This document shows, piece by piece, positions 28,931 to 45,375 of a stretch of 48,693 bases of DNA. Position numbers and translations under genes: made by a program. Source of the stretch: Candidatus Bipolaricaulota bacterium (GTDB lineage Bacteria; Bipolaricaulota; Bipolaricaulia; Bipolaricaulales; Bipolaricaulaceae); NCBI GenBank assembly GCA_014361055.1, contig JACIWI010000133.1:1-48693 (forward strand). Reading direction: 5' to 3'. Each line of letters begins with the position of its first letter. The stretch's first letter is position 1. The notes beneath the pieces were generated by a model. It searched no databases and was not told the DNA's origin. It was given only the letters and a program-made list of their open reading frames with translations.

Positions 28931-29078
28931 GAGGCGAGGACGCGCACGGCCGCCCGACCAGTGGATGCAGGGGAGCAGAACGTCGTCAGCGGCCAGGGCG
29001 GCTCAACCCGAAGATAAGTCGCGCGCTCTGGATGTGACAGGTCAACATCTGACCCCGGAGTGCGGAGTGATAGGTCAC

Positions 29079-29594
29079 CTATGGAGTAGGAGCGCCCTCT
29101 TCTCTGGGAGCACGCTCAGGCGGGAACGCCGCCAGGGCCGCTCTGACAGAGTCCAGCAGTCGTTCAACGGACGCAATCCCACCCAACATATACTCCTCGT
29201 CAATCAATGAGGAACTCAGATCGCAGGCTACTGGCCCCCACCTGTTGACGAACTCGTTCTGGTACCGACCCTTGCCCAGGAAGTACTCGTCTGAGTGCTC
29301 GCGAGCATCACGAACTCTCTCGGCCATTTCCGTAGCCTCCAGGAACTCGCGGAGAGCAGGCTGGTCACGTCTTGAGACATGGGGTTCGATTCGACGGAGA
29401 AACCGCCGTGCCATTACCGTAGCTGTCAACGCGTAGTGCTCGAGGAACGGGCGAGATCGGAGAAGATCGGGCTCAGGTGGCCTCTCAGCGGACAGCTTGT
29501 CGCGAAGTTGGAGCAAGGCTGTGAGCATGCGGGATGCCTCCTCCAACCAAATGCGGCCAAAGAACAGACAGGTATTGAAATCAGACGTGTTCAT
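29079..29594 (-). CDS. hypothetical protein co-transcribed with the split restriction-modification genes (contains an R-x4-H motif)
   Basis: 171 aa. ATG overlaps the stop of the upstream restriction-modification C-terminal-half gene as ATGA. Local GC is lower. No family recognised; RRIEPH matches the minimal HEPN Rx4-6H pattern. Confidence 0.45.
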   Translation of the reverse strand: MNTSDFNTCLFFGRIWLEEASRMLTALLQLRDKLSAERPPEPDLLRSRPFLEHYALTATVMARRFLRRIEPHVSRRDQPALREFLEATEMAERVRDAREHSDEYFLGKGRYQNEFVNRWGPVACDLSSSLIDEEYMLGGIASVERLLDSVRAALAAFPPERAPREEGAPTP

Positions 29595-30967: not shown

Positions 30968-31281
30968 GCCTCGATCCCGACGGGCTTGACCTCGTCGCCC
31001 ACGAACGTCCCCTCCCCCAGGGAGGCGTACTCCTCGGACGTGTACCCGAGTGCCTGAACCGGCTCCATGATCCTCGCCGCCGCCACTCCCAAGAGCTCAA
31101 GCCGCTCCCGCAGGCCCATGCGTGCGAAGTCCTTGGAGATCACGACCACGTCAATATCGCTCTCCTTGTCGAGGATCCCCTTGGCGCGCGACCCATAGAC
31201 GATCACCTTCTCCGGCTCGATCCCCAGCCGGCGCAGCTCCTCCTTGTATCGCCTCACGGCTTCAACTGTCTCGCGATCCAT
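30964..31281 (-). CDS. minimal nucleotidyltransferase (MNT) of a HEPN/MNT toxin-antitoxin pair
   Basis: GSRAKGILDKESDIDVVVI is the GS...DxD Pol-beta-type nucleotidyltransferase signature. 105 aa. Confidence 0.8.
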   Translation of the reverse strand: MDRETVEAVRRYKEELRRLGIEPEKVIVYGSRAKGILDKESDIDVVVISKDFARMGLRERLELLGVAAARIMEPVQALGYTSEEYASLGEGTFVGDEVKPVGIEA

Positions 31282-31640
31282 TCCACCGCCTCCTCTGCCT
31301 GCCGCAGGTACGCCTCGGCCACCTCCCGGGGGTAGGCACGCACGACCTCTTCGAGGTCCGCCGGGTAGCGGGTGGCTGTGCTGGACCCAGCAAGCTTCCC
31401 GAGGAAGTCCCGCAGCTCCGATGGGGGGTCGAGCCTCGCTCGCTTGAGGAGGACGATCAGGTCGTGGATCCGCGGCGGAGTCCTTCCCGTCTGCTCCTGA
31501 ACCCTGGCCTTGAGCGCCTTCTCCACCGCGAGGTGGGCGAAGAAGACCGTGTACACGAACCGGCCTGCCGCCAGCATGTCCCGCGCGGCAGCGAGGTCGT
31601 AGCGCGCGGAGTTCAGCCAGTTCTCAACCCTTGCGTCCAT
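31254..31640 (-). CDS. HEPN-domain protein of a HEPN/MNT pair
   Basis: 128 aa all-helical protein with GRTPPRIHDL (the R-x5-H HEPN motif). It overlaps the MNT gene by 28 nt and the upstream MTase stop by 17 nt. Confidence 0.75.
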   Translation of the reverse strand: MDARVENWLNSARYDLAAARDMLAAGRFVYTVFFAHLAVEKALKARVQEQTGRTPPRIHDLIVLLKRARLDPPSELRDFLGKLAGSSTATRYPADLEEVVRAYPREVAEAYLRQAEEAVEWIARQLKP

Positions 31641-33492
31641 CTCCGTACCTTATGAAGAAAGCGATCGCCACGCCCTGGCGGATGTCGAACACGTTCTCGT
31701 CTGGGGAGCCGTCGGGGCAGATCTCCTTCTTGAGGGAGTTCCCGTGGAGGTCGAGCACGTAGATCTCGTCGAACGTGGTCATCAGGTGCTGGCGCATCCC
31801 GCGGAAGGTTGGGTTGTCGAGGTAGCCGTGGTTCGTGATCATCCCCACCACGCCCTGGCCGGCCTGGGCAATCTTCCACTCCGCGAACCGCAGGAATTTC
31901 ACGTAGTCGTCCTGGAGCCACTTAGGGTTCTTCTCCCCCAACGGCTTTCCATCTACCTGCTTGTAGTCTTCAATGAGCCCGCGGATCCACGGTCCCTTGT
32001 TGGCGGAGTGGCCGAAGTACGGGGGGTTCCCGAGGATCACGAGGATCGGCACGTCGCGCTTGACCTCGCCGGCTTGGTGGGATTCGTGGGCGAGGGACGC
32101 AAACCCCGGAAGCTGACTCTCGGCAAGCTCCTCCATCTCCAGGGTGTTCGTGAGGTAAAGCTTGAACCTGTCATCGGGGCCGAGGGTGTACCCCAACTCC
32201 TCGAGGAAGAACCCCATCTTGAGGTGCCCCACGGCGTAGGGCGCCATCATGAGCTCGAACGCATAGAAGTTCTTCAGGATGTGATCGCGGATGAACTCCT
32301 TGCGCCCCGCCTCTCCGTACTTGGAGACGAACTCCTCCACCGCGACCTGGGCCGCTCTCGCGACGAACGTCATCGTCCCCGCCGCCGGGTCGAGGAGGGT
32401 CACGCCGGGGGAGGCGAGGCCGTCAGGTCTCCCGAATCTCTGCTGGAGGATCTGGTGAAGGGAGCGGACGATGTAGGACACCACCGGCTCGGGGGTGTAG
32501 TACACGCCCCGGCGCTCGCGCTCCTCGGGGTCGTACTGGGCGAGGAACGTCTCGTAGAAGTGGACGATCGGGTCGGCCCCTTTGCCCTCGTGGAAGAACT
32601 GGTGAAGGATCCCCTTCACATCGGCCACGGCCAGGACCTCGGCCAGGTCGTCGACGATCCACTCCAGAGGCTTGGGGAGATCCCCAAGCGAGATGAAGCG
32701 GAACACGTCGCGGAGGATGCCGATGGTGTGGGGAATGGAGTCGAACGCAGCGCGACGGGTGAAGGTCTCTCCGGCCCGCACGCGGGCCGCAAACAGGCCG
32801 TAGGTGAGGGTTTGGGCGTAAAGGTCGGCGAAGTCCTCCATGGTCAGCCCGGCGATGAGGTGTTTCCGGAACGCCTCGTAGAAACCCAGGAGGTGGCCTC
32901 CCCCTCGGGTCTGCTCCTGGGCAAGCTCCTCGGCCACCACCTGGTCGCGGAGGAACCGGGTGCGCACGGCCAGGGCCACCGCCAGCTCTTCGGCGTTGTA
33001 CGCGCGGGGGAGGGAGAAGGCAAAGAACTGCTGAAGAAGCGTCTGCAGCTCGTCGGCCTGTTCGATCGGGGGCCTCGCGCCGAGCTTGGTGGCGACGAAC
33101 GGCCGGGCGAGGCGGGCGGCGGCCACGAGCGCTCCGTCGCGGTAGAGGCGGAACTCGAAGAAGTTGGTGAGGATGAGGTTCGGGAACGTTCTTCGGTAAC
33201 GCTGAAGCTGCTCGCTTTCCGCAATTGGCTCGAGGTTCTCCACCGTCGGCGCCTTGGCTTCGATGTAACCGATGATGTGCTGCTGGCCGTCCCATACCCG
33301 GAAGTCGGGGTTCCCGGCCTCGGTGGATTTCGGGAGCGTCGTGACGTGGACGGCCTCGAGCTTCGTTGCTTGGGCCCACGCGGAAACAAGGTCGGCCAGG
33401 GGCGCGTAGAAGCTCTCCTCGCGCGCATCGCCCTGGGCGGCGACTGCGGTGAGCCGAGCGAGGTAGTCGCGGAAGAGCGCCTTCTCAGCCAT
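31624..33492 (-). CDS. N-terminal half of an MmeI-family type IIL restriction-modification enzyme: PD-(D/E)xK nuclease domain plus gamma-class N6-adenine methyltransferase domain
   Basis: N-terminus GNPDFRVWDGQQHIIGYIEAK and TFPNLILTNFFEFRLY parallel the MmeI nuclease domain (D...E-x-K). MTase motif I is LLDPAAGTMTF and motif IV is ILGNPPYFG. The ORF ends about 140 aa after NPPY, and the target-recognition domain is missing from this polypeptide. Confidence 0.8.
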   Translation of the reverse strand: MAEKALFRDYLARLTAVAAQGDAREESFYAPLADLVSAWAQATKLEAVHVTTLPKSTEAGNPDFRVWDGQQHIIGYIEAKAPTVENLEPIAESEQLQRYRRTFPNLILTNFFEFRLYRDGALVAAARLARPFVATKLGARPPIEQADELQTLLQQFFAFSLPRAYNAEELAVALAVRTRFLRDQVVAEELAQEQTRGGGHLLGFYEAFRKHLIAGLTMEDFADLYAQTLTYGLFAARVRAGETFTRRAAFDSIPHTIGILRDVFRFISLGDLPKPLEWIVDDLAEVLAVADVKGILHQFFHEGKGADPIVHFYETFLAQYDPEERERRGVYYTPEPVVSYIVRSLHQILQQRFGRPDGLASPGVTLLDPAAGTMTFVARAAQVAVEEFVSKYGEAGRKEFIRDHILKNFYAFELMMAPYAVGHLKMGFFLEELGYTLGPDDRFKLYLTNTLEMEELAESQLPGFASLAHESHQAGEVKRDVPILVILGNPPYFGHSANKGPWIRGLIEDYKQVDGKPLGEKNPKWLQDDYVKFLRFAEWKIAQAGQGVVGMITNHGYLDNPTFRGMRQHLMTTFDEIYVLDLHGNSLKKEICPDGSPDENVFDIRQGVAIAFFIRYGDGRKG

Positions 33493-33540
33493 GCGCCTGA
33501 CTTATACCACCATGCGCCTGACTTATACCACAAGGATCAC
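33493..33540. repeat. 21-bp perfect tandem duplication (CATGCGCCTGACTTATACCAC x2) at the start codon and -10 region of the MTase-nuclease gene
   Basis: The plus strand at about 33488..33540 carries the unit twice. On the minus strand it reads GTGGTATAAGTCAGGCGCATG twice, and the second ATG is the gene start. An inverted partial copy AAGTCAGGC lies at about 33627..33635. Confidence 0.6.
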
Positions 33541-33725
33541 CCGTCAGGCCAGCGATCTAGGGAGTCGGGGCTTGTTCCGTGCATGTCGCCTCCCGACGCT
33601 GGGTACAGAGGGATGAGAACCCGGCAAGTCAGGCATCTCGGCTCTATGGAGATGACCAAACCCGCGAGTCGTGCGCTCGCAACATACGGGCGCCAGTTGC
33701 CCCTCTCTACGCGAAGATAACCGCC

Positions 33726-33989
33726 ATGCGCATCGTGGGGATGAAGGAACTGAGGGATCACGCGACGAAGCTTCTTCGTGGCCGTGACCCGGTGCTCGTC
33801 ATGCGCCGGGACAAGGTCGCGGGCGTGTTCCTCCCCCTGGACGGAGACGACCTCGCGCTTGAGCTCCGCCGCGAGGTCCAGCTCGGACTGGCGGCCAAGA
33901 TCCGGGAGAGCCTGACGAGCAAGGGGGTCTCGGAACAGGACGTCCTCGATGACTTCCAAGTTTCCCGCAAAGCTCGTCGTCGACGCTAA
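33726..33989 (+). CDS. Phd/YefM-type antitoxin (VapB-like)
   Basis: MRIVGMKELRDHATKLLRGRDPVLVMRRDKVAGVFLPLDGDD. The ATG is residue 50 of the listed ORF. It overlaps the downstream PIN gene. Confidence 0.65.
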   Translation: MRIVGMKELRDHATKLLRGRDPVLVMRRDKVAGVFLPLDGDDLALELRREVQLGLAAKIRESLTSKGVSEQDVLDDFQVSRKARRRR

Positions 33990-34395
33990 CGTCATCCTCT
34001 CCGCCGTCGTCGGAGGCAAGGCATCCGACCTCGTATGGGCCGTGCCCTCGCAGCTCGTAACCGCTGCGTACGCCCTTCAGGAGGTCATGCAGTACTCACT
34101 GACCCTCGCCGAGAAGGCGGACGTCCCCCTGGAGGTCGCCCTGGGTGCACTGCGCCTGCTCCCGATCACCGCCGTTCGCCGCAGCTTCTACGGAGCGAGA
34201 ATGGCCCAAGTCCGGGATCTGATCGGGAGCCGTGACCCAGACGACGTGGACCTCCTCGCGCTCGCCCTGAAGCTCGAGTCCCCGATCTGGACGAACGACT
34301 GCGACTTCCAGGGCCTCGGGGTTGTGATCTACACAACGGCCCAGCTGGCATCCATGTCGGATAGACCCACTCAGTCGGAGCAGGGGGTTGGGTAG
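33949..34395 (+). CDS. PIN-domain toxin VapC
   Basis: LVVDANVILSAVVGG...DVDLLALALKLESPIWTNDCDF, with PIN acidic residues. Confidence 0.8.
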   Translation: MTSKFPAKLVVDANVILSAVVGGKASDLVWAVPSQLVTAAYALQEVMQYSLTLAEKADVPLEVALGALRLLPITAVRRSFYGARMAQVRDLIGSRDPDDVDLLALALKLESPIWTNDCDFQGLGVVIYTTAQLASMSDRPTQSEQGVG

Positions 34396-35447
34396 CCGGT
34401 GACGAGGAAGTCGTCGCCCACGCGCTCGATCTCAAGGTCGCGAACGCGGATCGCCTGGGAGGGATCATCCACACCGTCGCCGCCCACGGAAGGGACGGCG
34501 TCCAGTCCGCCGAGTATCAAGGGGGCGTAGAAGAACGCGATCTTGTGAACAAGGTTCTGTGAGAGAAACGACCACGCCACCTCCGCTCCCCCCTCGACGA
34601 GGAGCGAGTCCGTCTCCTTCCCCAGCCGGCGCAGGAGCGCCTTCAGGTCGACCCGGTCCCCCTCTCCCGGCAGCCGCCACACCTCGACCCCTTTCGCGCG
34701 GAGCTGAGCTTCGATCTCAGATGGCATCCGGCCGGTGGTGGCGACGACGGTCTTCGCCTCTGGGGACAGGACCTTCGCCCCAAGGGGGATCCGCCCCTGA
34801 GAATCGAGCACGATCCTGAGCGGCTGCGGGCCTGGGACCTCGCGCACCGTGAGCTCCGGGTCGTCGGCGAGCACCGTCCCCACCCCGACCAGCACCGCTG
34901 CGTACCGCCGCCGCAGGGCGTGGACGAGCCGCCGCGCCTCGGGCCCGGTCAGCCACCGGGACCTGCCTGTGGCCGTGGCGATCTTCCCGTCCAGGGACAT
35001 CGCCAGCTTGAGGACCACGAATGGAGTTCGGTTACGAATCCAGTGGAAGAAGACCTCATTCAGGCGGCGGGCCTCGTCGGCGAGCACCCCCTCCACGACC
35101 TCGATCCCCGCCGCCCGCAACCGCGCGATCCCCTTTCCGTCCACAAGGGGGTTGGGGTCGCGAATGGCCACGATGACCCGGCGAATTCCGGAGGCGATGA
35201 CGGCCTCGGTGCAGGGCGGGGTCTTCTTCTCCCGATGAACACAGGGCTCCAGGTTCACGTAGAGGTCGGCCCCCCGGGCCCGGTCCCCGGCCTTCTCCAG
35301 GGCCACGGCCTCGGCGTGGGGGCCGCCGCACCGGGTGTGGTACCCCTCGGCGATCACCGCCCCGTCCCGCACTACCACCGCTCCCACGAGCGGGTTGGGC
35401 CGCGTGCAGCCCTCGCCCTGCCGCGCGAGCTCCAGGGCCCGCCTCAT
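34371..35447 (-). CDS. ribD: bifunctional riboflavin biosynthesis deaminase/reductase RibD
   Basis: Start at MRRALELARQ. CMP/dCMP deaminase motifs HAEAVAL and PCVHREKKTPPC, then a RibD C-terminal reductase domain. Confidence 0.85.
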   Translation of the reverse strand: MRRALELARQGEGCTRPNPLVGAVVVRDGAVIAEGYHTRCGGPHAEAVALEKAGDRARGADLYVNLEPCVHREKKTPPCTEAVIASGIRRVIVAIRDPNPLVDGKGIARLRAAGIEVVEGVLADEARRLNEVFFHWIRNRTPFVVLKLAMSLDGKIATATGRSRWLTGPEARRLVHALRRRYAAVLVGVGTVLADDPELTVREVPGPQPLRIVLDSQGRIPLGAKVLSPEAKTVVATTGRMPSEIEAQLRAKGVEVWRLPGEGDRVDLKALLRRLGKETDSLLVEGGAEVAWSFLSQNLVHKIAFFYAPLILGGLDAVPSVGGDGVDDPSQAIRVRDLEIERVGDDFLVTGYPTPCSD

Positions 35448-36100
35448 GAACCTCTCGTGTACCCCGCCGCCTTCCATAGGGCGAGCGCCGCCGCCCGGGG
35501 GTCGGGTTGAGCGAAGATCGCCGAACCGGCCACCACCAACTCCGCCCCCGCCTCCACCACCTGGCGCACGTTCTCCGGGCCGATCCCCCCGTCTACGGCG
35601 ATGACCACTGGCCGCCCCCGGAGTTCCCCCTGCAGGCGCCGGATGCGGTCCACCGCCTCAGGGTTAAACGCCTGCCCGCCGAACCCCGGCTCCACGCTCA
35701 TCACCAGCACCAGGTCCACTCGGTCGAGGTAGGGCAACACCGCCTCCATTGCCGTGCCCGGCCGGAGCGAGATCCCGACCTGGCAGCCGAGGCCCCGGAT
35801 CGTGCGGATCGCCTCCTCGGGTGGGTCGTGGGCCTCGACGTGGAACGTGATCACGTCCGCAGGACCCACCTTGAACTGCGGGGCATAGATGGCCGGGCGG
35901 TCGATCATGAGGTGGATGTCGAACGGAAGCCAGGTGTGCCGGCGCAGGGCGTTGGCCACCGTCGGCCCGAACGTGAGGTTGGGCACGAAGTGCCCGTCCA
36001 TCACGTCGAGATGGAGGTAGTCGACCACCCCCTCGACTCGCTTCACCTCCTCGGCGAGACGGCCGAAGTCGGCGGAGAGGAGGGACGGGGCCAGCTTCAT
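35444..36100 (-). CDS. rpe: ribulose-phosphate 3-epimerase
   Basis: MKLAPSLLSADFGRLAEEVKRVE...HLDVMDGHFVPNLTFGP...VMSVEPGFGGQAF. Confidence 0.9.
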   Translation of the reverse strand: MKLAPSLLSADFGRLAEEVKRVEGVVDYLHLDVMDGHFVPNLTFGPTVANALRRHTWLPFDIHLMIDRPAIYAPQFKVGPADVITFHVEAHDPPEEAIRTIRGLGCQVGISLRPGTAMEAVLPYLDRVDLVLVMSVEPGFGGQAFNPEAVDRIRRLQGELRGRPVVIAVDGGIGPENVRQVVEAGAELVVAGSAIFAQPDPRAAALALWKAAGYTRGS

Positions 36101-36774
36101 CGACGCCGGTTGGCGACCATAAGCATCGAGAGGAGCTGAAGGGCGGCCATCGCTGCGGCAGCGACGTAGGTGAGGGCAGCAGCGGTCAGGACCTCCTTCA
36201 CCGCGCCAAGCTCCTCCTGGGTCACGTACCCGCTCGTGCGCAGCGCCGCCACCGCCCGCCTAGAGGCGTTGAACTCCACGGGCAAGGTGATCAGGGTGAA
36301 CAGGACCGCCGCCGAGAACAGGATGATCCCGATGTTCACCAGAGGATCGGCGCGCAGAAAAAGGCCAATGAAGAACAACGGGAACGCGAGCTGGGAACCG
36401 AACATCGCCGCTGGGACCACCGCCGAGCGCAGGGCGAGGGGGGCGTACCGCTGGGCGTGCTGGATCGCGTGTCCGGCCTCGTGGGCGGCCACGCCCACCG
36501 CCGCTACCGACGCCGAGCCGGCGGCGGACAGGCGGAGGGTGCGGGAGCGCGGGTCGTAGTGGTCGCCGAGGGCGCGGCCCGTGCCCTCGATCTTGACCCC
36601 GCTCACCCCGGCCCGGGCCATGATCTCGTCCGCCACCTGGGCGGCGGTCACCCGACGCTGGGTCGGAACCTGGAGGTATTTGGCATACGTGCTCCGCACC
36701 TTGTACTGGGCGTAGATGGCGAGGATCAGGGCGGGGAAGAGGAGGATCAGCGTCTCCGGGTAGAAGAGCCACAT
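36097..36774 (-). CDS. membrane zinc metallopeptidase, YugP family
   Basis: HEAGHAIQH HExxH motif between TM segments, 225 aa. Confidence 0.8.
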   Translation of the reverse strand: MWLFYPETLILLFPALILAIYAQYKVRSTYAKYLQVPTQRRVTAAQVADEIMARAGVSGVKIEGTGRALGDHYDPRSRTLRLSAAGSASVAAVGVAAHEAGHAIQHAQRYAPLALRSAVVPAAMFGSQLAFPLFFIGLFLRADPLVNIGIILFSAAVLFTLITLPVEFNASRRAVAALRTSGYVTQEELGAVKEVLTAAALTYVAAAAMAALQLLSMLMVANRRR

Positions 36775-36815
36775 GGTCTCGCACCTCCTTGATCAAGCTC
36801 AGGCGTGAATTATAG

Positions 36816-37168
36816 CCGAGCTGGGGGAGAGGGCCATAGGCCGGATTCTGTCGAGGGGGACCATCCATCTATGCGGCCTACCCGGAGGCATCGGGCGGGC
36901 CACCCTCAAGCGCCTCCCTATTTGGCCTTGCTCCGGCCGGGGTTTGCCGTGCCCGGGAACCTCGCGGCCCCGGCGGTGGGCTCTTACCCCACCTTTTCAC
37001 CCTTGCCCGCACCCAGGCCAAGGGCCTGGGCCGCTGGCGGTCTGTTTTCTGTGGCACTTTCCAGGGATCACTCCCTCTCGGGTTTCCCCGAGCGGCCTGC
37101 CCTGCGGAGTCCGGACCTTCCTCAGGGGAAGAATCCCCTGCGGCCCCCTGGCCTTCTCCCCCGCCGCA
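36816..37168 (-). ncRNA. rnpB: RNase P RNA, bacterial type A
   Basis: The reverse complement matches conserved type-A blocks, with the E. coli M1 RNA sequence recalled from memory as the comparison. The blocks are AGGAAGGUCCGGACUCCGCAGGGCAGG (P4), GGUAAGAGCCCACC, CGGAGCAAGGCCAAAUAGGG, GGGUAGGCCGCAUAGAUGGAUG and CGACAGAAUCCGGCCUAU. P1 pairs GGGGGAGAAGGCC with GGCCCUCUCCCCC. Ends are approximate to about 5 nt. A TATAAT box lies at about 37197..37202. Confidence 0.85.
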
Positions 37169-37697
37169 GGCCGGTCCGCGTGTACCGGCAACGCGGACAC
37201 ACCCACATTATACCGGTGAACGATTCCACTCGACGAAGCGGCCGTCCACACCGCGGACAGAAGCGGCGCGCCAAAAGAAGGAAAAAAACAAGGGCACCGA
37301 CCCCATAAAGCACATAGCGCCAAGGAAATTTCCCGACCCTTTCCGGACGCGGGCTTTCCTCCAGCGCGGAAAGGAGGGCGGAAGCGAACCACACCGCGGC
37401 GTAACCGGGGCGAGAGCTGTTGGCCTTGCGCTCCGCCTCCTTCCGCAACTCCTCGGTACCCGGAATGAAAAGAGCTGGACCGGTATGAAAGGCCACCTGC
37501 CACCTTCGATCCTCCCCGCGCGCGAAGACCAAAAGGAAATGCCGCTCGCTCAACCCCCAAACCCGAAATATCTCCGCCGCATAGCGCCAGGGATCGGCGA
37601 AGGGATCCCGCCACGTGGCAAGATAAACGAACTGGATGCCTTTTTCCTGAAGATCGGCAATGAAGCTGAGGAGCTTGGCCCGATCCTCGGCCTCCAA
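37122..37697 (-). CDS. TPM-domain protein with C-terminal TM helix; 3' end uncertain
   Basis: LLSFIADLQEKGIQFVYLAT...FRVWGLSERHFLLVFARGEDRRWQVAFHTG fits the TPM (PF04536) pattern. A TM helix follows, then a CPRC-x16-CPRC tail. The last about 45 codons overlap the rnpB promoter and 5' end and may be read-through. Confidence 0.5.
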   Translation of the reverse strand: MEAEDRAKLLSFIADLQEKGIQFVYLATWRDPFADPWRYAAEIFRVWGLSERHFLLVFARGEDRRWQVAFHTGPALFIPGTEELRKEAERKANSSRPGYAAVWFASALLSALEESPRPERVGKFPWRYVLYGVGALVFFLLLARRFCPRCGRPLRRVESFTGIMWVCPRCRYTRTGLRRGRRPGGRRGFFP

Positions 37698-37750
37698 GGT
37701 TTGGCCGTAATCGTTGAGCGGGCCTACTTGCAGGGGAAGGAGGGGCTGGG

Positions 37751-38458
37751 CTAGCCCCAGCGCAGCACCAAGAAGCGCGAGCAGTGCTCGCAGGTCACCA
37801 CCTCCCGCCCCTCGCGGAGCTTAAGGAGCGTGGCCTCCGAGACCTTGAGATGGCAACCGCCACAGGCCTGGCCGTCCACATACACCACGGGATTGGCCAG
37901 CCGCTCGCTCAGCCTTTCGTAATGCTGCCGAAGGGAAAGGGGAAGCCGGGAAATCAGCTCATTCCTTTGGGCCTCCAGATCTTCTCGGCTCTTTCCCAAC
38001 TCCTCCCGCTTTCTTTGGAGCTCCGCGATCTCTTGCTCCAGCCGAGCTCGACGCTCGCGATACTCCGCCTCGTCCGCCACGAGCTTTTGCGCGTCCTCCT
38101 CCACGGCCTCCATGAGCCTTATCGCTTCCTCGCTGAGCTGGTCGAGTTTGGACCGCAGGACCTGTACCTGCTCCCGCAAGAACTCCATCTCCTTGTAGGG
38201 GATGATGTCGTGATCCAGTTTCCTTTGGTACTCCCGGATCTTCGCGTCCGTGGCGTCCACCTCGTTGGCCCGCTCTTGGGCCGTGAGGCGAAGTTTTTTG
38301 TGCTCCTCTTTGCGGCGGGCGAAATCCTGGTCGGTCCGGGCAATGCGAGCTCGCAGCCGCTCCTCCTCTCCGGCAATGTCGGCAAGGCGCCCCGCGAGCT
38401 TGTGCAAGTTTTCCTCCACCTCGGCCAAGGCCCGCAGAATCCCAAGGGCCTCGCTCAT
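37751..38458 (-). CDS. coiled-coil protein with C-terminal C4 zinc ribbon (COG1579 / zf-RING_7 family)
   Basis: Start at MSEALGILRALAEVEE. Long heptad-repeat region, then C-terminal CGGCHLKVS...CEHCSRFL. Confidence 0.7.
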   Translation of the reverse strand: MSEALGILRALAEVEENLHKLAGRLADIAGEEERLRARIARTDQDFARRKEEHKKLRLTAQERANEVDATDAKIREYQRKLDHDIIPYKEMEFLREQVQVLRSKLDQLSEEAIRLMEAVEEDAQKLVADEAEYRERRARLEQEIAELQRKREELGKSREDLEAQRNELISRLPLSLRQHYERLSERLANPVVYVDGQACGGCHLKVSEATLLKLREGREVVTCEHCSRFLVLRWG

Positions 38459-39516
38459 CCCTCCACCACCTCCAATTCCGGAAAGGCGCGGCGCAGAAGC
38501 TCCGCCACGTGCCAGACGAACGGACGCTCCGTCTCCGCGTGGCCAAAAAGGGCCACGGTCAAGCCCGCTTCCTCCGCCTCCTTCAGACGGTGGTAATTGG
38601 CCTCTCCGGTGATGTAAAGTTCGGCTTTTGGGGAAATCGCCTGAGGAACAAGGTCTCCACCGCTTCCCCCGCATACGGCCACCCGCCGCACCTTCCGTTC
38701 CCGCGGCCCCACCACGAGCTTTGGGCCGTGAACTCCTAGATGCTCCGCAAATCCGGAAAGAATTTCCTCCACGTCCTTCGGCTCAGAAAACTCACCGATT
38801 CGGCCAAGACCGTGCAAAGGAGAGCCTTGGGTCAAGGGATAAAGATCGTAGGCCACCTCTTCATAGGGGTGGGCGGAGAGCATGGCCCGCACCACCGCCT
38901 CCACCTTCTCCGCAGGAACAACCGTCTCCAACCGAATCTCCTCCACCTGCTCCTCTTTTCCCACCGTTCCCAGGAAGGGTCTCGCCCCTTCCTCGGGAAG
39001 AAACGTTCCTGTGCCTCTCAGGCGAAACGAGCAATGCCCGTACTTTCCGATCTTTCCAGCCCCGGCAGAGAAGATCGCTTGGGCCACGCGCTCCTCATAA
39101 CCTATGGGCACAAACACCACCAGTTTCAAAAGCCTTCCCCGGGGAAGAAGGGGTTTTGTTTCCTTGAGTCCCGCATAGCCCGCGAGGACCTCGCCCAACC
39201 CGCCGTGGGCTACATCATAAGGGGTGTGCAGGGAAAACAGGGTCGTGCCATGGGAAAGGAGGGCCGCGATCTTTCTTCCCAATGGGGTTTCCGTGTAAAT
39301 CTCGGAAATGGGACGGAAAAGAAGGGGATGATGGGTAAGAAGAAGGTCGATTTGGGAAAGGCAAGGAATATGGGAAAGCTCGAAATCCAAGGCCACGAGA
39401 ACCGTTCGGCATGGCCCCTCCAGGCTTCCCACCTCCAGGCCGCAGCGATCCCAATCCTCGGCAAGACTCAAGGGAAACCGCTCTTCCAGGAAGGCCACGA
39501 CCTCGGCGCGTTGCAT
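38455..39516 (-). CDS. Nif3-family dinuclear metal-centre protein (YqfO-like, with PII-like insert)
   Basis: 353 aa. N-terminus MQRAEVVAFLEERFPLSLAEDWDRCGLEVGS...TVLVALD, with conserved His/Glu metal ligands. Confidence 0.85.
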   Translation of the reverse strand: MQRAEVVAFLEERFPLSLAEDWDRCGLEVGSLEGPCRTVLVALDFELSHIPCLSQIDLLLTHHPLLFRPISEIYTETPLGRKIAALLSHGTTLFSLHTPYDVAHGGLGEVLAGYAGLKETKPLLPRGRLLKLVVFVPIGYEERVAQAIFSAGAGKIGKYGHCSFRLRGTGTFLPEEGARPFLGTVGKEEQVEEIRLETVVPAEKVEAVVRAMLSAHPYEEVAYDLYPLTQGSPLHGLGRIGEFSEPKDVEEILSGFAEHLGVHGPKLVVGPRERKVRRVAVCGGSGGDLVPQAISPKAELYITGEANYHRLKEAEEAGLTVALFGHAETERPFVWHVAELLRRAFPELEVVEG

Positions 39517-39573
39517 ACCATTTCAGTTTAGCGATTTCACCGAGGACCGCAATGGTGCGTATACTTCGAAAAA

Positions 39574-40455
39574 ATGGAGCCAATTGAGCTGATCGCAGGG
39601 GTATGGGTTTTCCCGGGTGCGGTGAATTTGGGGGTGATAGCGGCCGAGGGCCGGGCGGTTTTTATCGACGCCGGCCTGGACGATAGCGCAGCGCGGAAGC
39701 TCTGGCGCTGGGCGGAGGAAGCTGGCCTTAAACCCCATGCCGCCATCCTCACCCATGCTCATGCCGACCATTTCGGCGGCGCATATCTTTGGGAAAAGCG
39801 CGGCCTTCCCCTTTATGCCTCCGAGCCGGAGGGCGCGATGATGGAAAACCCAGAATTTGAGCCCATCTTCCTCTTCTCCGGAGCCTCCCCGCATCCAGAG
39901 CTTCTTTCCAAATTCACCCTGGCCAAGCCTTGCCGGATCAGCCAAACCCTTGCTCAAGGACCACTCGAGCTAGGTTCAATTTCTTTGGAGATCGTGGCCC
40001 TCCCCGGCCACGCACCCGCCCAGATCGGAGTCCGGGTCGGGCCGGTACTATTCTGTGCCGACGCTCTTTTTCCTCCGGAAATCCTTTCGAAACACCCGAT
40101 CCCCTTTTGCCATGATTTCTCCGGCGCTCTTTCGTCGCTGCGAAATGTGGAGGAGGCGGAGGTGGTGGTGCCGGGCCATGGTCCGATCCTGCGGAATGCA
40201 GAGGTGCGCGGAGCTTGCGGGGAATTCCGTGACCGCCTTGAGCAAATAAAGGACCTGGTCTTCCAGGAAACAACAAACCCAAAAAGCGCTGAAGAAATCC
40301 TGGCCAAAGTGGCCGCGGAGCTTGGGGCAAAGCTTCAGACCATCACGGAGTTTCTCTTGGCCAGGACCACGATCCTTGCGGCCCTCACGGCCCTGGTGCG
40401 GGAGGGCCTGGTGGAGGCCGTATTGGAGGGAAACCTCCTTTGGCGGAGGCGCTGA
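39574..40455 (+). CDS. MBL-fold metallo-hydrolase
   Basis: THAHADHFGG motif; 293 aa. Confidence 0.75.
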   Translation: MEPIELIAGVWVFPGAVNLGVIAAEGRAVFIDAGLDDSAARKLWRWAEEAGLKPHAAILTHAHADHFGGAYLWEKRGLPLYASEPEGAMMENPEFEPIFLFSGASPHPELLSKFTLAKPCRISQTLAQGPLELGSISLEIVALPGHAPAQIGVRVGPVLFCADALFPPEILSKHPIPFCHDFSGALSSLRNVEEAEVVVPGHGPILRNAEVRGACGEFRDRLEQIKDLVFQETTNPKSAEEILAKVAAELGAKLQTITEFLLARTTILAALTALVREGLVEAVLEGNLLWRRR

Positions 40456-41537
40456 TGGCCGTGCGCACAGGATACGCCGATCTTCCCCTCCATGGCGGCC
40501 GGGCTCCGCGCTGGCTTTTCGCCCGCATGGTGCGACTTTCCCGGGAAATCCTTCTTCTTTTGGCCGAGGAATTCGGAACCTTTGAGGTCTTGCGACGTCT
40601 CTCCGATCCCCATTGGTTTCAGGCCTTGGGCTGCCTTCTTGGCTTCGACTGGCACTCAAGCGGCCTCACCACCACGACCTGCGGGGCCCTAAAGGAGGCC
40701 TTAAAGGAGGTGGGCCCGGAGCTCGGGCTTTTCGCGGCCGGAGGAAAAGGCGCGGCCTCCCGCCAAACCCCCGATGAGATCACATCCTGGGCGGAGAAAT
40801 TGGGGATCGAGGCCGCGCCCTTGGTGTACGCCTCGCGGATGAGCGCCAAGGTGGACTCCGCCGCCCTCCAGGATGCCTTCCAGATCTACCACCACACGTT
40901 CTTCTTCGACCAAAACGGTAACTGGTGCGTGGTGCAGCAGGGAATGAAGGAAAGCGTGCATCTTGCCCGCCGCTACCACTGGTTCTCTGCGGGGCTCCAA
41001 AGCTTTGTGGTCGAGCCCCATTCAGGGGTGGTGGGAGAAAAGTCTTCTCTGGTGCTGAATTTGGTGGCCAAAGAAGCGGAGCCAGCGAGGACAGTGATTC
41101 CCGAGCTGGCCCAAAGGCCCCCGGATCATCTCGTGCGGGAACTTTCGCATCTGAAGAGCTTAAAACTTCCGGAGCGACACGCCCTTTTGCTTTCCGACAT
41201 CAATCCGCGGCGCCTGGAGAGCGTGTTTCTTCGCACCTATGAGGCCCAAGCCGAGAATTTCGAGGCTTTATTGGGTGTTCCCGGGTTGGGCGCTAAAGGT
41301 CTGCGGGCCTTGGCCCTCCTTTCCGAGCTCGTCTATGGGGCGCCCGCGTCCTTCCGCGACCCGGCCCGGTTCTCCTTTGCCCACGGCGGGAAGGACGGCA
41401 CACCCTATCCCGTGGATCGGGCCACCTACGACAAAACCATCGCTGTTTTGGAGCAGGCCATTCGGCGGGCCCGGCTGGGGGAGCGGGAGGAGCTCGCCGC
41501 TCTCCGGCGGCTTTCACTCCTCTTCCGCTCCCCTTAG
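40440..41537 (+). CDS. DUF763-domain protein
   Basis: N-terminus MAVRTGYADLPLHGGRAPRWLFARM matches the DUF763 consensus as I recall it; 365 aa. Confidence 0.55.
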   Translation: MAEALMAVRTGYADLPLHGGRAPRWLFARMVRLSREILLLLAEEFGTFEVLRRLSDPHWFQALGCLLGFDWHSSGLTTTTCGALKEALKEVGPELGLFAAGGKGAASRQTPDEITSWAEKLGIEAAPLVYASRMSAKVDSAALQDAFQIYHHTFFFDQNGNWCVVQQGMKESVHLARRYHWFSAGLQSFVVEPHSGVVGEKSSLVLNLVAKEAEPARTVIPELAQRPPDHLVRELSHLKSLKLPERHALLLSDINPRRLESVFLRTYEAQAENFEALLGVPGLGAKGLRALALLSELVYGAPASFRDPARFSFAHGGKDGTPYPVDRATYDKTIAVLEQAIRRARLGEREELAALRRLSLLFRSP

Positions 41538-41568
41538 GCCCGGCGGTGCTGGTGGGTTGGCGGCGGCC

Positions 41569-42405
41569 TCAAAGGAGGTGGGCCAGCTTTTTGGCCTCCT
41601 CAGCCATCGCTCCATTTCCCCCGGATCCCAAAAGGAGGGCGTCGTCCGCAACACCGATCTTCCGGAAAAGCCCAACCAGATCCTCCACCCGGAGCTTCCG
41701 CTTCTCCTCTCCCTCCAAATCCAGGACGATCCGGCCCTTGTGCATCATGACGAGACGGTTCCCCACGGAAAGGGCCTGATCCATGCGGTGGGTGACCATG
41801 AGGGTGGTAATCCCATGCTCGGCCACGAGTCTCTCGGTGATGGCCAGGACCTTCTCGGCATTGGCCGGGTCCAGGGCGGCGGTGTGCTCGTCCAAAAGGA
41901 GGAGCTTGGGCCTGGTCACGATGGCCATGAGAACAGTGAGGGCCTGTCGTTCCCCGCCGGAAAGGTAAGCCACCCTTTCGGAAAGCCTTTTTTCCAGACC
42001 CATTTCCAAGGCACCCACCGTTTCCGCAAGGAACCGCCGGCGCCGGGCGGTGAGGAGGAAGGAGAGGGAGCGCGGCCCCTTCTTCACGGCCAGGGCCAGG
42101 TTTTCCGCCACCGTCATGTGGGCGGCCGTCCCCTGAAGGGGATCCTGAAACACCCGGCCGATGAGGAAGGACCGGCGATGGGCGGGCCAATGAGTCACAT
42201 CCCGTCCGGCCAGTTTCACCCGCCCCCGATCGGGACGACAAGCGCCGGCAATGACATTTAGAAGTGTCGTCTTTCCCGCGCCGTTTGAGCCGATCACCGT
42301 GGCGAAATCCTGAGGAGCTAGGAAAAGGGTGACGTCCTGAAGGGCCACCACCCGCTCCGCGCCCAAGGGAAAGGTTTTGGTGACGTTAAGAACCTCCAAG
42401 ATCAT
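41569..42405 (-). CDS. ABC transporter ATP-binding protein (uncharacterised-substrate importer, COG1101-like)
   Basis: Walker A GSNGAGKTTLLN, signature LSGGERQAL, Walker B LLLLDEHTAALD. Confidence 0.85.
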   Translation of the reverse strand: MILEVLNVTKTFPLGAERVVALQDVTLFLAPQDFATVIGSNGAGKTTLLNVIAGACRPDRGRVKLAGRDVTHWPAHRRSFLIGRVFQDPLQGTAAHMTVAENLALAVKKGPRSLSFLLTARRRRFLAETVGALEMGLEKRLSERVAYLSGGERQALTVLMAIVTRPKLLLLDEHTAALDPANAEKVLAITERLVAEHGITTLMVTHRMDQALSVGNRLVMMHKGRIVLDLEGEEKRKLRVEDLVGLFRKIGVADDALLLGSGGNGAMAEEAKKLAHLL

Positions 42406-43286
42406 GAGGTCTCTCCTTTCAGGGCCGCCCGGATGGTGGGCGCGGCCAAAGCACCCAGGACCACCAGCGCCGTAAGAAGGCGCAGGTCCGAGGCGGTGAA
42501 ACCCAAAGCCGCGCCGTAGCGCAGGGCCAGGGAAATGGCCAGGCGATAAACACAGGAGCCAAAGATCGCGGCGAAAACAGCGAAGAACAAGGACCGCGGC
42601 CGAAGGAGAATCTCGCCCACGATGACCGAGGCCAGCCCGGCGATGATGGTGCCCACACCCATTCCCACGTCAGCAAAACCCGAATACTGCGCAGCCAAAG
42701 CCCCGGAAAACCCAACGAGACCGTTGGAAAGGGCCAGGCCAAGGATCAGGAGGTTATCGGGGTTCATGCCCAAGGAGCGCACGAGCTGGGGGTTTTGGCC
42801 CACGGCGCGCAGGGCTCCCCCGAGCTCGGTGTGGAGGAAAAGGAAGATGAGGAGGAACGCGGCCAGGCAGAAGATCCCCGCGGCCACGAAGTTTTCGTAA
42901 GCGCGGGGCACGCCCAAGGCCTGGGAAAGCTGGACGAGGGCGGAGGGTCTTCCGAGAAGGGAGAGGTTTGGGCGGCCCATGATCCGGATGTTCAAGGAGT
43001 AGAGCATGATCATGGTGAGGACGCCCGCGAGTAAGCCGGGGATGCGGAGGCGGGTGGCCAAAAGGCCGGTGAAGGCCCCGGCCAAGAGCCCGACCCCGCC
43101 CCCGGCCAGCGCCGCCAGGAACGGATTCGTTCCCTGCAGGATCAGGATCCCGGCCACCGCGGCCCCGAGGGGAAACGTTCCGTCCACAGAAAGATCGGGA
43201 AAGGAAAGGACCCGGAAGGAGAGATAGACCCCGAGGGCCATGAGGCCATAGATCAGACCCTGCTCGGCGGCGTGAAGGATCAGCAC
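42402..43286 (-). CDS. ABC transporter permease (COG4120-like)
   Basis: 294 aa polytopic membrane protein. Overlaps the ATPase start as ATGA. Confidence 0.8.
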   Translation of the reverse strand: MLILHAAEQGLIYGLMALGVYLSFRVLSFPDLSVDGTFPLGAAVAGILILQGTNPFLAALAGGGVGLLAGAFTGLLATRLRIPGLLAGVLTMIMLYSLNIRIMGRPNLSLLGRPSALVQLSQALGVPRAYENFVAAGIFCLAAFLLIFLFLHTELGGALRAVGQNPQLVRSLGMNPDNLLILGLALSNGLVGFSGALAAQYSGFADVGMGVGTIIAGLASVIVGEILLRPRSLFFAVFAAIFGSCVYRLAISLALRYGAALGFTASDLRLLTALVVLGALAAPTIRAALKGETS

Positions 43287-43290
43287 CGGC

Positions 43291-44259
43291 TCACTCCTTT
43301 ACGAACCTCTGCCCACCGAAGAGAAGCCCGGTGGCCAAGGCCTTGGCTTCCGGAGTGAAGCGAAAGCCAATCTCCTCGGCCACATCGAGGTTCAACCACA
43401 CCTGCGTTCCGGCCTGGCGCACGAACGGGATTTGTGCCGGCGGGGTCCCCTGAAGGACCTTGACCACAAGCTCCGCGGCCAAAAGGCCGTGGTCGAAGTA
43501 GTCAAATCCCGTGCAGATAAGGACGCCTTTTTCTAGGCTCGTGGGATCGGCAAAGAGGAAGGGGATCTTGTGGGCCTTGGATACAGCCACCACCGCGTCC
43601 AGTGCGGCGGCCACGGTGTTGTCCGTGGTGCAGTAGATGGCGTCCACTCGGCCAACGAGGGACTGGGCTGCAAGGGGTACCTCGGCCGTGTTATTCGCCG
43701 CAGCTAGGACTAGGGTGAGTCCCAACTCCTCCGCGGCCTTCTTCGTCATCTCCGTGAGGATGGCGGAGTTGGTCTCCCCAGGGTTATAGACCTGGCCCAG
43801 GCGCTTTAGGCCGGGGATGAGCTTTAAAAGTAGCTCCACATCAGCGCGGACGTCGATCATGTCCGAGGCACCTGTGACATTGGGAAACTCCGTAAGCCCG
43901 GCACCAACAGGATCAGTGACGGCCGCGAAAATCACGGGAACGTTGGTGTCCTTGAACACTTGCACTGCGGCCTGGGATGAAGGGGTGGTGATGGAGACCA
44001 CGAGATCCACGCCGCGGGCCCGGAAGTCCTGGGCGATGGCCATGGCCACGGAGAAGTCACCCTGGGCGTTGGTGATGATGAACTGCACGTTTTCGCCCTC
44101 GACAAATCCCGCGCGCCTTAGTCCTTCGATGACTCCGTCTCGACAGGCGTTGAGGGCGGGATGGTCAACGATCTGGGTGATCCCGATCACAATGGGTTTT
44201 CCTAGCCCAAAAATCCCAAGTACCGCTACCGCAAGGATTCCCAAAATCAGCTTTTTCAC
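43291..44259 (-). CDS. ABC transporter substrate-binding protein (ABC_sub_bind / COG2984 family)
   Basis: The likely start is the GTG at 44259 (VKKLILGILAVAVLG signal peptide) with an AAGGGGG Shine-Dalgarno. The listed ATG at 44280 lies inside the upstream terminator T-tract. Confidence 0.8.
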   Translation of the reverse strand: MKKLILGILAVAVLGIFGLGKPIVIGITQIVDHPALNACRDGVIEGLRRAGFVEGENVQFIITNAQGDFSVAMAIAQDFRARGVDLVVSITTPSSQAAVQVFKDTNVPVIFAAVTDPVGAGLTEFPNVTGASDMIDVRADVELLLKLIPGLKRLGQVYNPGETNSAILTEMTKKAAEELGLTLVLAAANNTAEVPLAAQSLVGRVDAIYCTTDNTVAAALDAVVAVSKAHKIPFLFADPTSLEKGVLICTGFDYFDHGLLAAELVVKVLQGTPPAQIPFVRQAGTQVWLNLDVAEEIGFRFTPEAKALATGLLFGGQRFVKE

Positions 44260-44270
44260 CGTACACCCCC

Positions 44271-44306
44271 TTAAAAACAAAAAACCGCAAGCTTTTGCTT
44301 GCGGCG
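44271..44306 (-). terminator. rho-independent terminator (8-bp GC stem, 4-nt loop, U-tract) downstream of fmt
   Basis: Minus strand reads GCCGCAAGC AAAA GCUUGCGG followed by UUUUUUGUUUUU. Confidence 0.6.
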
Positions 44307-44458
44307 CTGGGCATGACTCTCCGATTAGAAGAGAGTCACACCCTCATGCGAACCAATACCACACGTAGGCCTTCGCCCCGAGAATCACCTCCTTCCACAC
44401 CAAGTTCTTCCGCGTCACGCCCTTGAAATACGACGGACGACGGGGGGCTGTCAAGGGG

Positions 44459-45313: not shown

Positions 45314-45375
45314 CCCGAACCTCTCGGCGAGGGCCTGCAGAATGGGGACGGCAAAGGAGCTCGTTCCCGCGAAAG

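Follow-up and report, generated by a model that had tools for sequence, protein, structure and literature searches.

A shift in composition at the rnpB locus of a Candidatus Bipolaricaulota contig most probably marks a misjoin of two related genomes

Background

Stable-RNA genes are classic integration sites, and in the islands found at tRNA, tmRNA or other stable-RNA genes the composition boundary coincides with the RNA gene itself. Homologous-recombination mosaics between related bacteria, by comparison, show a single clean crossover in a conserved stretch, with gene order kept. A third route to an abrupt boundary lies in the assembly: inter-genome translocation misassembly, in which segments of two genomes are joined at a common sequence, is the error class targeted by metaMIC (PMC9661791), and GUNC (PMC8201837) detects chimeric metagenome-assembled genomes (MAGs) through the lineage heterogeneity of the genes within their contigs.

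We report the analysis of a stretch of 48,693 nucleotides, hereafter the window, which is the whole contig of an NCBI Candidatus Bipolaricaulota MAG (locus tags H5T53_*, its own proteins being H5T53_07565 and MBC7093839-52) and in which base composition changes abruptly at rnpB, the gene for bacterial RNase P RNA. The initial annotation of this DNA held a chimeric contig, and integration or recombination at a stable-RNA gene, to be equally likely. We arrive at a probability of roughly 0.93 that the jump in composition is an assembly artefact, a misassembly in which two Bipolaricaulota genomes, here called A and B, have been joined inside rnpB; the misjoin itself is something that we infer rather than observe.

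The locus resembles the translocation misassemblies addressed by metaMIC (PMC9661791) in that two genomes' segments meet at a common sequence, with an abrupt change of composition and lineage and with the correct neighbours left on separate contigs. It departs from that class, as outlined there, in two respects. The sources are related and have the same local gene order, so that the product looks like a normal syntenic locus and would pass checks of gene order, and what they have in common at the join is a ribozyme gene present in single copy, rather than an rRNA operon, insertion sequence or phage. As in the chimeras that GUNC is described as detecting (PMC8201837), the genes of one contig fall into two lineages; unlike the chimeras outlined in that source, the two lineages are of one phylum and probably of one family-level group. 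Classification at a coarse taxonomic level may thus overlook the chimera, the detection of which needed close relatives of both halves.

Results and Discussion

Composition and codon usage change at the rnpB locus

The features of the window that bear on the argument are collected in Table 1; the last codons of the 191-aa gene overlap the 5' end of rnpB.

Table 1. Segments, genes and crossover zone of the window, with coordinates
Feature	Position	Strand	Basis or remark
A-type segment, high-GC, from a clade II-like Bipolaricaulota genome; bulk of the contig	1..36871	.	GC 0.677, GC3 0.88
ribD, A-type	34371..35477	-	Pfam RibD_C/dCMP_cyt_deam_1
rpe, A-type	35444..36100	-	Pfam Ribul_P_3_epim
Zn_peptidase_2 (YugP-like) gene (ZnPep), A-type, directly downstream of rnpB	36097..36774	-	PF04298, E = 3e-80
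rnpB (bacterial RNase P RNA, class A), hybrid	36822..37159	-	RF00010, 242 bits
Crossover zone, 20 nt, ATGCCTCCGGGTAGGCCGCA on the rnpB strand	36872..36891	-	Same in both parents
B-type segment, low-GC, from a clade I-like Bipolaricaulota genome	36892..48693	.	GC 0.617, GC3 0.73
191-aa membrane/zinc-ribbon protein (TPM-domain family homologue), B-type	37122..37697	-	ORF
Zn_ribbon_9/CT398 coiled-coil gene (zinc ribbon), B-type	37751..38458	-	Pfam
Nif3, B-type	38455..39516	-	Pfam
MBL hydrolase, DUF763, ABC transporter (three genes), fmt, def, recG, gatC, B-type	39574..48515	.	Gene calls and Pfam from contig L004

The shift is real by every measure applied. GC is 0.677 over 1..36821 and 0.617 over 37160..48693, the ribD-rpe-ZnPep stretch standing at 0.696, and within 34371..41000 the local change point falls at 37196, where GC goes from 0.694 to 0.606. 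Mean GC3 is 0.882 for the 19 genes on the left and 0.731 for the 12 on the right (Mann-Whitney p = 5e-6). Codon choice moves in the direction first noted, with AAA, GAA, TTT and CTT all commoner on the right: AAA/(AAA+AAG) rises from 0.10 to 0.42, GAA/(GAA+GAG) from 0.15 to 0.25, TTT/(TTT+TTC) from 0.12 to 0.33 and CTT as a fraction of leucine codons from 0.07 to 0.31. Tetranucleotide profiles correlate at r = 0.95-0.98 within one side and at 0.75-0.82 between left and right. The initial annotation had put the fall in GC at about ten points and the boundary at 37100..37350. The fall exists, but amounts to 6 points overall and ~9 locally (15 for GC3), and the shift does lie at rnpB, but the true switch of sequence, at 36872..36891, is 200-450 nt further to the left; the RNA gene is conserved, and the change in composition is therefore visible only beyond it.

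The left side is itself non-uniform, since a defence/toxin-antitoxin island at ~28.4-34.4 kb has a GC of 0.60-0.65, and because of this island the best single change point of the full window falls at 27943. Such a dip within the left part is what might be expected if the whole contig were one genome with natural compositional heterogeneity, arising from expression-linked codon bias or from a drifted ancient mosaic, a reading that we consider scarcely credible. Scored apart, the island genes have a GC3 of 0.83 and retain the codon usage of the left side, with which the island is continuous in the independent contig L001. At rnpB, on the other hand, the right side finds its close counterparts (98-99.5% identity) in contigs from another lineage, the left flank of which is low in GC as well, and amino-acid identities, not codon usage alone, change clade at the junction. 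Natural heterogeneity is further contradicted by all ten relatives measured and by two A-type contigs, in each of which GC is the same on either side of rnpB.

The two sides of rnpB have different relatives

Gene order across rnpB is conserved in ~30 relatives, with rnpB itself at the same syntenic position in 12 of the 12 loci scanned, and these relatives split into a low-GC clade I and a high-GC clade II. GC is 0.58-0.64 on both sides of rnpB in five clade I loci and 0.67-0.72 on both sides in five clade II loci; only the window is mixed (0.617 vs 0.677-0.696). Lineage affinity, examined over 46 loci, flips at the junction, so that the taxonomic best hits of the two sides differ, the genes on the left being nearest to high-GC clade II and those on the right to low-GC clade I.

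On the left, the nearest orthologues of ZnPep, rpe, ribD and MatE are all in clade II. Identities to clade II and clade I are, respectively, 78-80% vs 74-77% for ZnPep, 70-74% vs 60-69% for rpe and 74-78% vs 66-70% for ribD, MatE orthologues at 80-82% occur in clade II only, and the tetranucleotide profile of the A-type segment correlates with clade II at r = 0.92-0.98. On the right the preference is reversed, with identities to clade I and clade II of 68-79% vs 50-54% for the zinc-ribbon protein and 70-75% vs 57-62% for Nif3, and the MBL-ABC genes adjoining DUF763 reproduce the gene order of clade I. The adjacent right-side orthologues are found at this site in all relative loci that extend over them, and the full order as far as recG is found in clade I loci.

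This conserved setting bears directly on integration at a stable-RNA gene. A genomic island or mobile element inserted at rnpB, bringing in foreign DNA of lower GC, would explain why composition changes at an RNA gene of a kind known to serve as an integration site. We give it hardly any chance, since the low-GC side is made up of housekeeping genes (Nif3, fmt, def, recG, gatC) whose orthologues hold the same positions in ~30 relatives, in place of accessory cargo. A Pfam scan found no integrase or recombinase near the junction, rnpB being flanked by ZnPep, rpe and ribD to its left and by the 191-aa gene, zinc ribbon and Nif3 to its right. Self-BLAST of rnpB with 100 nt on each side gave only chance matches of <=17 nt in the window, and thus no duplicated rnpB fragment or att-like repeat of >=15 nt, though the far boundary of an island could lie past the contig end, to which the low-GC segment continues with no second boundary. 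Integration at rnpB is thus not upheld, and the remark that the locus is not a simple island is borne out by core orthologues at a conserved site.

Both parents exist unmixed in other samples

Logan contigs from other samples provide both parents. The A-type segment is 98.7, 97.7 and 94.7% identical to L001, L002 and L003, respectively, from three samples, L001 covering 29715..37002 of the window. L002 and L003 show the A parent unmixed: in both, the left flank leads to an A-type rnpB whose hairpin differs from the window's, and this in turn to the A-type version of the 191-aa gene. They are 100% identical to the window over 36775..36891, while the 191-aa orthologue beyond is 44% identical to the window's copy. 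The B-type segment is 98.1-99.5% identical to L004-L010 and L048, from eight other samples; L004 is collinear with the B-type block of the window (98.4% identical), and L004 and L048 carry the unmixed B parent from its right flank into rnpB. The 191-aa protein accordingly is 97-99% identical in the B-type Logan contigs but only 43-44% identical to the A-type orthologue (beside rnpB in L003; P0152, which is H5T53_05280).

The native left flank of B is found in L052 (JACIWM010000047.1), L053 and L054. L052 begins within rnpB, is 100% identical to the window from 37084 to 36872 and then diverges, continuing past 36872 with a clade I-like rnpB 3' end and a ZnPep-rpe-ribD block of 70% nucleotide identity to the window and a GC of 0.61. 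In tetranucleotide profile the B-type segment matches L052 at r = 0.96, vs 0.75-0.82 for the left side of the window. L053 and L054 are 96.4% identical to L052, and the SRA runs that contain them also yielded the B right-flank contigs L004 and L005. The B-type ZnPep is that of L052 (P0056); three other candidates for it, P0055 (L047), P0052 (L049) and P0037 (L050, L051), were rejected as belonging to other clade I lineages, with a zinc-ribbon protein 70-79% identical to that of B, and their loci served as extra controls.

What should adjoin each half of the window lies on separate contigs. The window's own MAG has a second, A-type copy of the gene adjacent to rnpB, H5T53_05280 (MBC7093397.1), on a contig of 5135 nt, and this copy is 99% identical to the A-type gene beside rnpB in L003. 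The JACIWM MAG (GCA_014360945.1) carries the orphan B-type left flank that starts inside rnpB, and it is linked to the MAG of the window only in that accessions and locus tags run consecutively (H5T54 = JACIWJ). An archaeal MAG of the JACIW series originates from a thermal habitat. An A-type zinc-ribbon or Nif3 copy from the window's MAG was not found among the clusters that could be inspected, which is not evidence of absence.

Ten independent contigs extend into rnpB, from one side or the other, and not one has the hybrid junction. Within rnpB, Logan contigs repeatedly break off, five samples at 37099-37101 and two at 36979, which shows that the metagenome graphs branch at this gene. The exact B-type zinc-ribbon protein is present in seven Logan contigs, and all six of these that reach rnpB end inside it; the exact ZnPep protein of the window occurs in three Logan samples and in its own contig only. 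No run is common to the three with the A-type ZnPep and the seven with the B-type zinc ribbon. At 90% identity, six B-type proteins (zinc ribbon, Nif3, MBL, ABC permease, recG, gatC) are found in no NCBI genome, the B-type MAG JACIWM included, other than the window's own contig, and exact look-ups of the window's 191-aa and Nif3 proteins returned no record. Scans of GTDB and JGI with the B-type zinc-ribbon protein gave relatives of <=76% identity only, which were of use for tracing synteny and clades, and no second copy of the junction.

The switch lies in a short stretch of rnpB common to both parents

The hybrid rnpB has a B-type 5' part of 268 nt and an A-type 3' part of 50 nt. From its 5' end it is identical to L004 and L048 over 37159..36979, and at its 3' end to L001, L002 and L003 over 36891..36822. 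A three-way alignment of the window with its A-type and B-type parents, spanning 34400..37560, holds 1004 sites informative for A versus B, of which all 800 to the left of the breakpoint are A and 203 of the 204 to the right are B. B-specific sites end at 36892 and A-specific ones start at 36871 (maximum chi-square 998), which leaves the 20-nt zone of Table 1, a stretch that is also identical in the aligned rnpB sequences of 11 of 12 relatives, with L011 the exception. Composition, lineage affinity and parental identity thus all change together, in one clean step.

Parent A has A at 36892, T at 36871 and a long form of the hairpin, against G, A and a short form in parent B, which also has T at 36959 and A at 36994. 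At 36892 and 36909 the window agrees with clade II relatives, and if the true A parent did so too, in contrast to L001-L003, the conservative interval for the breakpoint would be 36872..36958; sites 36959 and 36994 and the hairpin at 37015..37027 are B-specific with respect both to the A-type contigs and to clade II. Near the breakpoint, the exact stretches common to the rnpB genes of both parents are 20-49 nt long, possibly up to 87 nt.

The product is an intact RNA gene, which matches RF00010 over its full length (model positions 1-367) with 242.1 bits against a gathering score of 100, comparable to the native copies of the relatives (200-246 bits). The base pairs within the Rfam model are the same in the hybrid and in both parents. 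For the terminal P1 helix, duplex energies of -51.7 (hybrid), -57.8 (B parent) and -55.7 (A parent) were obtained, values that are affected by flanking sequence not part of the mature RNA and by shifts in pairing register.

An intact rnpB that scores as high as a native copy, a crossover in a stretch identical in both parents and a conserved synteny that would make the product viable are also what genuine homologous recombination would leave behind. The event would have been an orthologous swap of the Nif3-to-recG side, of at least 11.8 kb, between lineages A and B in either direction, with one crossover in the rnpB core. We judge this very unlikely, albeit less so than the two alternatives discussed above. 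Outside rnpB the lineages have only ~70% nucleotide identity, a divergence of ~30% that is far above normal tolerance, and the 20-49 nt of exact identity at the crossover make a poor substrate. The A-type gene supposedly replaced persists in the same MAG, 99% identical to A-type contigs elsewhere, and the B-type left flank that would match is found by itself, on a contig starting within rnpB. The absence of the hybrid junction from the ten independent contigs and the lack of any run holding both exact marker proteins tell against recombination as well. Were the hybrid real, which again we hold to be most improbable, at least 11.8 kb of core genes would have been replaced from a lineage roughly at genus level through a crossover of ~20 nt, and the A-type duplicate would come from a co-occurring non-recombinant strain.

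How the two genomes may have been joined

The reading that we prefer, a misassembly, takes the window as 36.9 kb of genome A and 11.8 kb of genome B joined in the conserved rnpB core. That reading, which the initial annotation had raised, gains support from the split best hits, from the existence of both parents in unmixed form and from the orphaned neighbours on separate contigs. Both source populations have the order Nif3 - zinc ribbon - 191-aa gene - rnpB - ZnPep - rpe - ribD, and they differ by ~30% in DNA sequence and by 6-9 points in GC. Being near-identical in the two genomes, rnpB would behave as a repeat in the assembly graph, and the assembler, or a later scaffolding or merging step, may have gone from the right flank of B into the left flank of A. 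The real right flank of A and the real left flank of B would then have been left over as short contigs ending in rnpB, and binning would have assigned the hybrid contig to genome A, the source of three quarters of its length.

One detail counts against the simplest form of this mechanism. With the parents at hand, the exact shared stretch comes to only 20 nt, whereas the smallest k-mer in usual use is 21, and a pure collapse of k-mers therefore needs one of three conditions: the A strain in the source sample may have had the window's bases at 36892 and 36909, like the clade II relatives; bubble-popping may have passed through single-base differences; or an overlap-based step may have merged the sequences.

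Conclusion

A public NCBI MAG contig very probably holds 11.8 kb of another lineage, including the commonly used core genes recG, def, fmt and gatC, while the MAG of that other lineage appears not to have the region. Taken at face value, the contig would give a false signal of horizontal transfer or recombination at rnpB, distort statistics of GC and codon usage and introduce conflicting signal into concatenated phylogenies. The remedy would be to split it at 36872..36891 and to join the right part to sequence of the JACIWM010000047.1 type. With gene order conserved, such a chimera is indistinguishable in appearance from a normal locus, and single-copy conserved RNA genes such as rnpB, besides rRNA operons, can be graph repeats between co-occurring relatives. 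For the biology of these bacteria, the boundary at rnpB would be without significance, an artefact of assembly and binning.

Composition and affinity on the two sides of rnpB

The base composition and codon usage of the window change at the rnpB gene, as the initial annotation had stated, and the change is seen in GC content, GC3, a change-point search and tetranucleotide usage alike. GC content is 0.677 over all of the sequence to the left of rnpB, 0.696 in the adjoining ribD-rpe-ZnPep block (ZnPep being the Zn_peptidase_2 gene next to rnpB) and 0.617 to the right, and a likelihood change-point search over 34371..41000 places the step at 37196, from 0.694 to 0.606. Mean GC3 is 0.882 for the 19 left genes and 0.731 for the 12 right genes (Mann-Whitney p = 5e-6); the named codons rise to the right as described, AAA from 0.10 to 0.42 of lysine codons, CTT from 0.07 to 0.31 of leucine and TTT from 0.12 to 0.33 of phenylalanine, and in tetranucleotide profile left and right reach a correlation of only 0.75-0.82. 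The fall in GC had been put at about ten points; it amounts to 6-9 points, with 15 points in GC3.

Over the whole window the best single change point is at 27943, because the left side contains a lower-GC stretch of its own (GC 0.60-0.65). This encodes PIN (PIN_2), N6 DNA methylase, HEPN plus nucleotidyltransferase and Type ISP C-terminal specificity domain proteins and looks like a defence/toxin-antitoxin island. It retains the codon usage of the left side (GC3 0.83, AAA share 0.11) and is contiguous with it in an independent Logan contig, L001. The match of that contig with the window extends leftward as far as 29715, where it gives way to a rve-family integrase/transposase gene that the window lacks, apparently mobile DNA specific to the strain.

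Coordinates of features in the window
Feature	Coordinates	Strand	Remark
A-type part	1..36871		high-GC, clade II-like
MatE gene	26247..27713		
Lower-GC stretch	28400..34400		within A-type part
rnpB	36822..37159	minus	Rfam RF00010, 242 bits, full length
Conservative breakpoint interval	36872..36958		
B-type part	36892..48693		low-GC, clade I-like
rnpB variable hairpin	37010..37030		
Overlap of 191-aa gene with rnpB 5' end	37122..37159		38 nt
ABC permease	42402..43286		NCBI MBC7093847.1

The zinc-ribbon protein beside the junction, used as query against GTDB genomes and JGI metagenomes, retrieved 36 Bipolaricaulota loci. The order DUF763 - Nif3 - zinc ribbon - 191-aa gene - rnpB - ZnPep - rpe - ribD is constant in every long-enough locus, the 191-aa gene encoding a membrane/zinc-ribbon, TPM-like protein, and rnpB lies between that gene and ZnPep in 12/12 loci scanned. 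The relatives fall into two groups by GC, clade I (0.57-0.65) and clade II (0.65-0.74). The right genes of the window are nearest to clade I and the left genes to clade II, so that rnpB marks a switch in phylogenetic affinity as well as in composition; the MBL-ABC gene order on the right is also that of clade I.

Identity of window proteins to the two clades
Protein	Side	Clade I (%)	Clade II (%)
Zinc ribbon	right	68-79	50-54
Nif3	right	70-75	57-62
191-aa gene	right	54-65	38-49
ZnPep	left	74-77	76-80
rpe	left	60-69	70-74
ribD	left	66-70	74-78
MatE	left	none at 80-82	80-82

Intrinsic heterogeneity within one genome, under which a single lineage would simply vary in composition along its length, is contradicted by this switch in amino-acid identities and by the uniformity of the relatives: GC on either side of rnpB is equal to within 0.03 in ten relatives and two A-type contigs (0.05 for the 1.6-kb L003), and the window alone is mixed. 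An island integrated at rnpB, the stable-RNA integration site of the initial annotation, is rejected, as the low-GC side consists of syntenic core genes, with no integrase near the junction and no att-like repeat in the window.

Two smaller observations concern these flanks. The clade II relative L017 has a fluoride riboswitch (RF01734, 48.6 bits, 18993..19057 minus) about 7 kb beyond rnpB, with no counterpart reported in the window. The ABC permease is annotated at 279 aa, 15 residues short of a 294-aa reading frame identical in Logan contigs, probably through a differing start-codon call.

The breakpoint within rnpB

The window was aligned with a composite of each parental type over 34400..37560, giving 1004 informative sites at which A differs from B and the window has the base of one or the other. 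To the left of the breakpoint 800/800 are A and to the right 203/204 are B (maximum chi-square 998), which places the breakpoint between 36892, the last B site, and 36871, the first A site. The intervening 20 nt are the same in both parents and in the rnpB of all but one (L011) of 12 aligned relatives. The bases of the window at 36892 and 36909 are also present in clade II relatives, and the A population of the source sample may differ from the A-type Logan contigs L001-L003; since the A parent may vary, and B is certain at 36959, 36994 and the hairpin 37015..37027, a more conservative interval is tabulated.

The variable hairpin differs greatly in length among Bipolaricaulota. B-type sequences, and some from clade II, have a short form; the A-type form exceeds it by about 20 nt, and that of the relatives L016, L019 and L020 by 40-50 nt. 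Near window position 36970, L019 and L020 have a further insertion, of about 39 nt. At the other end, rnpB sequence encodes the last 12 codons and TGA stop of the 191-aa gene, a putative tail (CCCCUGAGGAAGG). The A-type orthologues (L003, P0152) have the same ending, and in some clade II homologues (P0153, P0157) the stop comes sooner.

Unmixed parents and displaced neighbours

Three Logan contigs, each from a different SRA run (L001, L002 and L003), carry the exact ZnPep protein. Their overall identity to the window is 98.7, 97.7 and 94.7% respectively, rising to at least 99.6% in the rnpB-adjoining flank and 100% over 36775..36891. Within rnpB, L002 and L003 have five substitutions relative to the window, and their hairpin is different and longer; beyond rnpB both carry a GC-rich version of the 191-aa gene, an orthologue sharing only 44% identity with the window copy.

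For the B-type parent, seven Logan contigs carry the exact zinc-ribbon protein and an eighth a near-identical variant. Eight further runs supplied them, and their identity to the right side of the window is 98.1-99.5%. The B-type left flank is represented by JACIWM010000047.1 (GCA_014360945.1), which starts within rnpB and matches the window at 100% over 37084..36872. Beyond this match its rnpB 3' end is clade I-like, and the genes ZnPep-rpe-ribD-fusA-ftsZ follow; this part has a GC of 0.61 and is about 70% identical to the window in nucleotide sequence. The tetranucleotide profile of JACIWM010000047.1 correlates with that of the right side of the window at r = 0.96. Two Logan contigs (L053, L054) are 96.4% identical to it, and their source runs, SRR16588181 and SRR14699989, also yielded the B right-flank contigs L004/L005.

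The window is a complete contig, 48,693 nt long, of an NCBI metagenome-assembled genome under the label Candidatus Bipolaricaulota bacterium (MAG; proteins MBC7093839-MBC7093852, locus tags H5T53_*). The A-type fragment of the rnpB-adjoining gene from L003, used as query, retrieved P0152, 'hypothetical protein H5T53_05280' (MBC7093397.1), 99% identical to the query and encoded on a 5135-nt contig. It shares the locus-tag prefix and accession range of the window, where the zinc-ribbon gene is H5T53_07565 (MBC7093842.1), so that one MAG holds two versions of an otherwise single-copy gene, A-type on the short contig and B-type in the window, with 43% identity between them. The reading frame of P0152 ends within the rnpB 5' end and the short contig must therefore reach rnpB. 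P0152 is annotated as 157 aa with no partial flag; P0262, a Logan protein of the same 90% cluster, has 222 aa and other homologues 165-220 aa, and P0152 may have a wrongly called start or a frameshift. Among the clusters inspected there was no A-type zinc-ribbon or Nif3 copy from the H5T53 MAG.

At 90% identity, the zinc ribbon, Nif3, MBL, ABC permease, recG and gatC proteins of the B right flank occur in no NCBI genome except this contig, not even in JACIWM, which is of B type. H5T54 is JACIWJ, which places H5T53 and JACIWM in one consecutive submission series, and the accession series suggests that the two MAGs may have a common source sample. A misjoin leaves such a pattern: besides the hybrid contig, the A-right sequence is orphaned on a contig of the A bin and the B-left sequence on a contig of the B bin.

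Origin of the junction

A single clean switch of lineage inside a conserved RNA gene, with both parents intact elsewhere and both displaced neighbours on separate contigs, argues strongly, from sequence comparison, for an inter-genome misassembly of two Bipolaricaulota lineages (probability about 0.93), in agreement with the chimeric contig that the initial annotation had offered as an alternative. The rnpB gene would be a node common to two co-occurring populations in the assembly graph, from which assembly, or merging or scaffolding done afterwards, would have taken the wrong exit. Independent Logan contigs repeatedly end within rnpB, which thus acts as a common node in practice: those reaching it from the B right side all do so, at 37099-37101 in five samples and 36979 in two (L004-L009 and L048), and the A-type L001 begins at 37002. 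These ends point to the co-occurrence, in the Logan samples, of several related Bipolaricaulota populations with rnpB k-mers in common.

The sole awkward point for a misjoin is the exact common stretch of 20 nt, measured against the parents at hand, which would need strain variation in the actual A parent, bubble-popping over a few single-base differences or an overlap-based merge. Genuine homologous recombination, in which the hybrid would exist in a living genome, is very improbable: it needs a crossover between genomes some 30% divergent, the A-type duplicate in the same MAG and the orphan B-left contig must be explained away, and the hybrid junction appears in none of the ten independent contigs that reach rnpB.

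Inter-genome misassembly is the class of error targeted by metaMIC (PMC9661791) and GUNC (PMC8201837), and the junction is an error of this kind, unusual in that the common sequence is rnpB and both sources are syntenic relatives, so that the chimera mimics a normal locus. The composition boundary at rnpB is no new biological feature of these bacteria.
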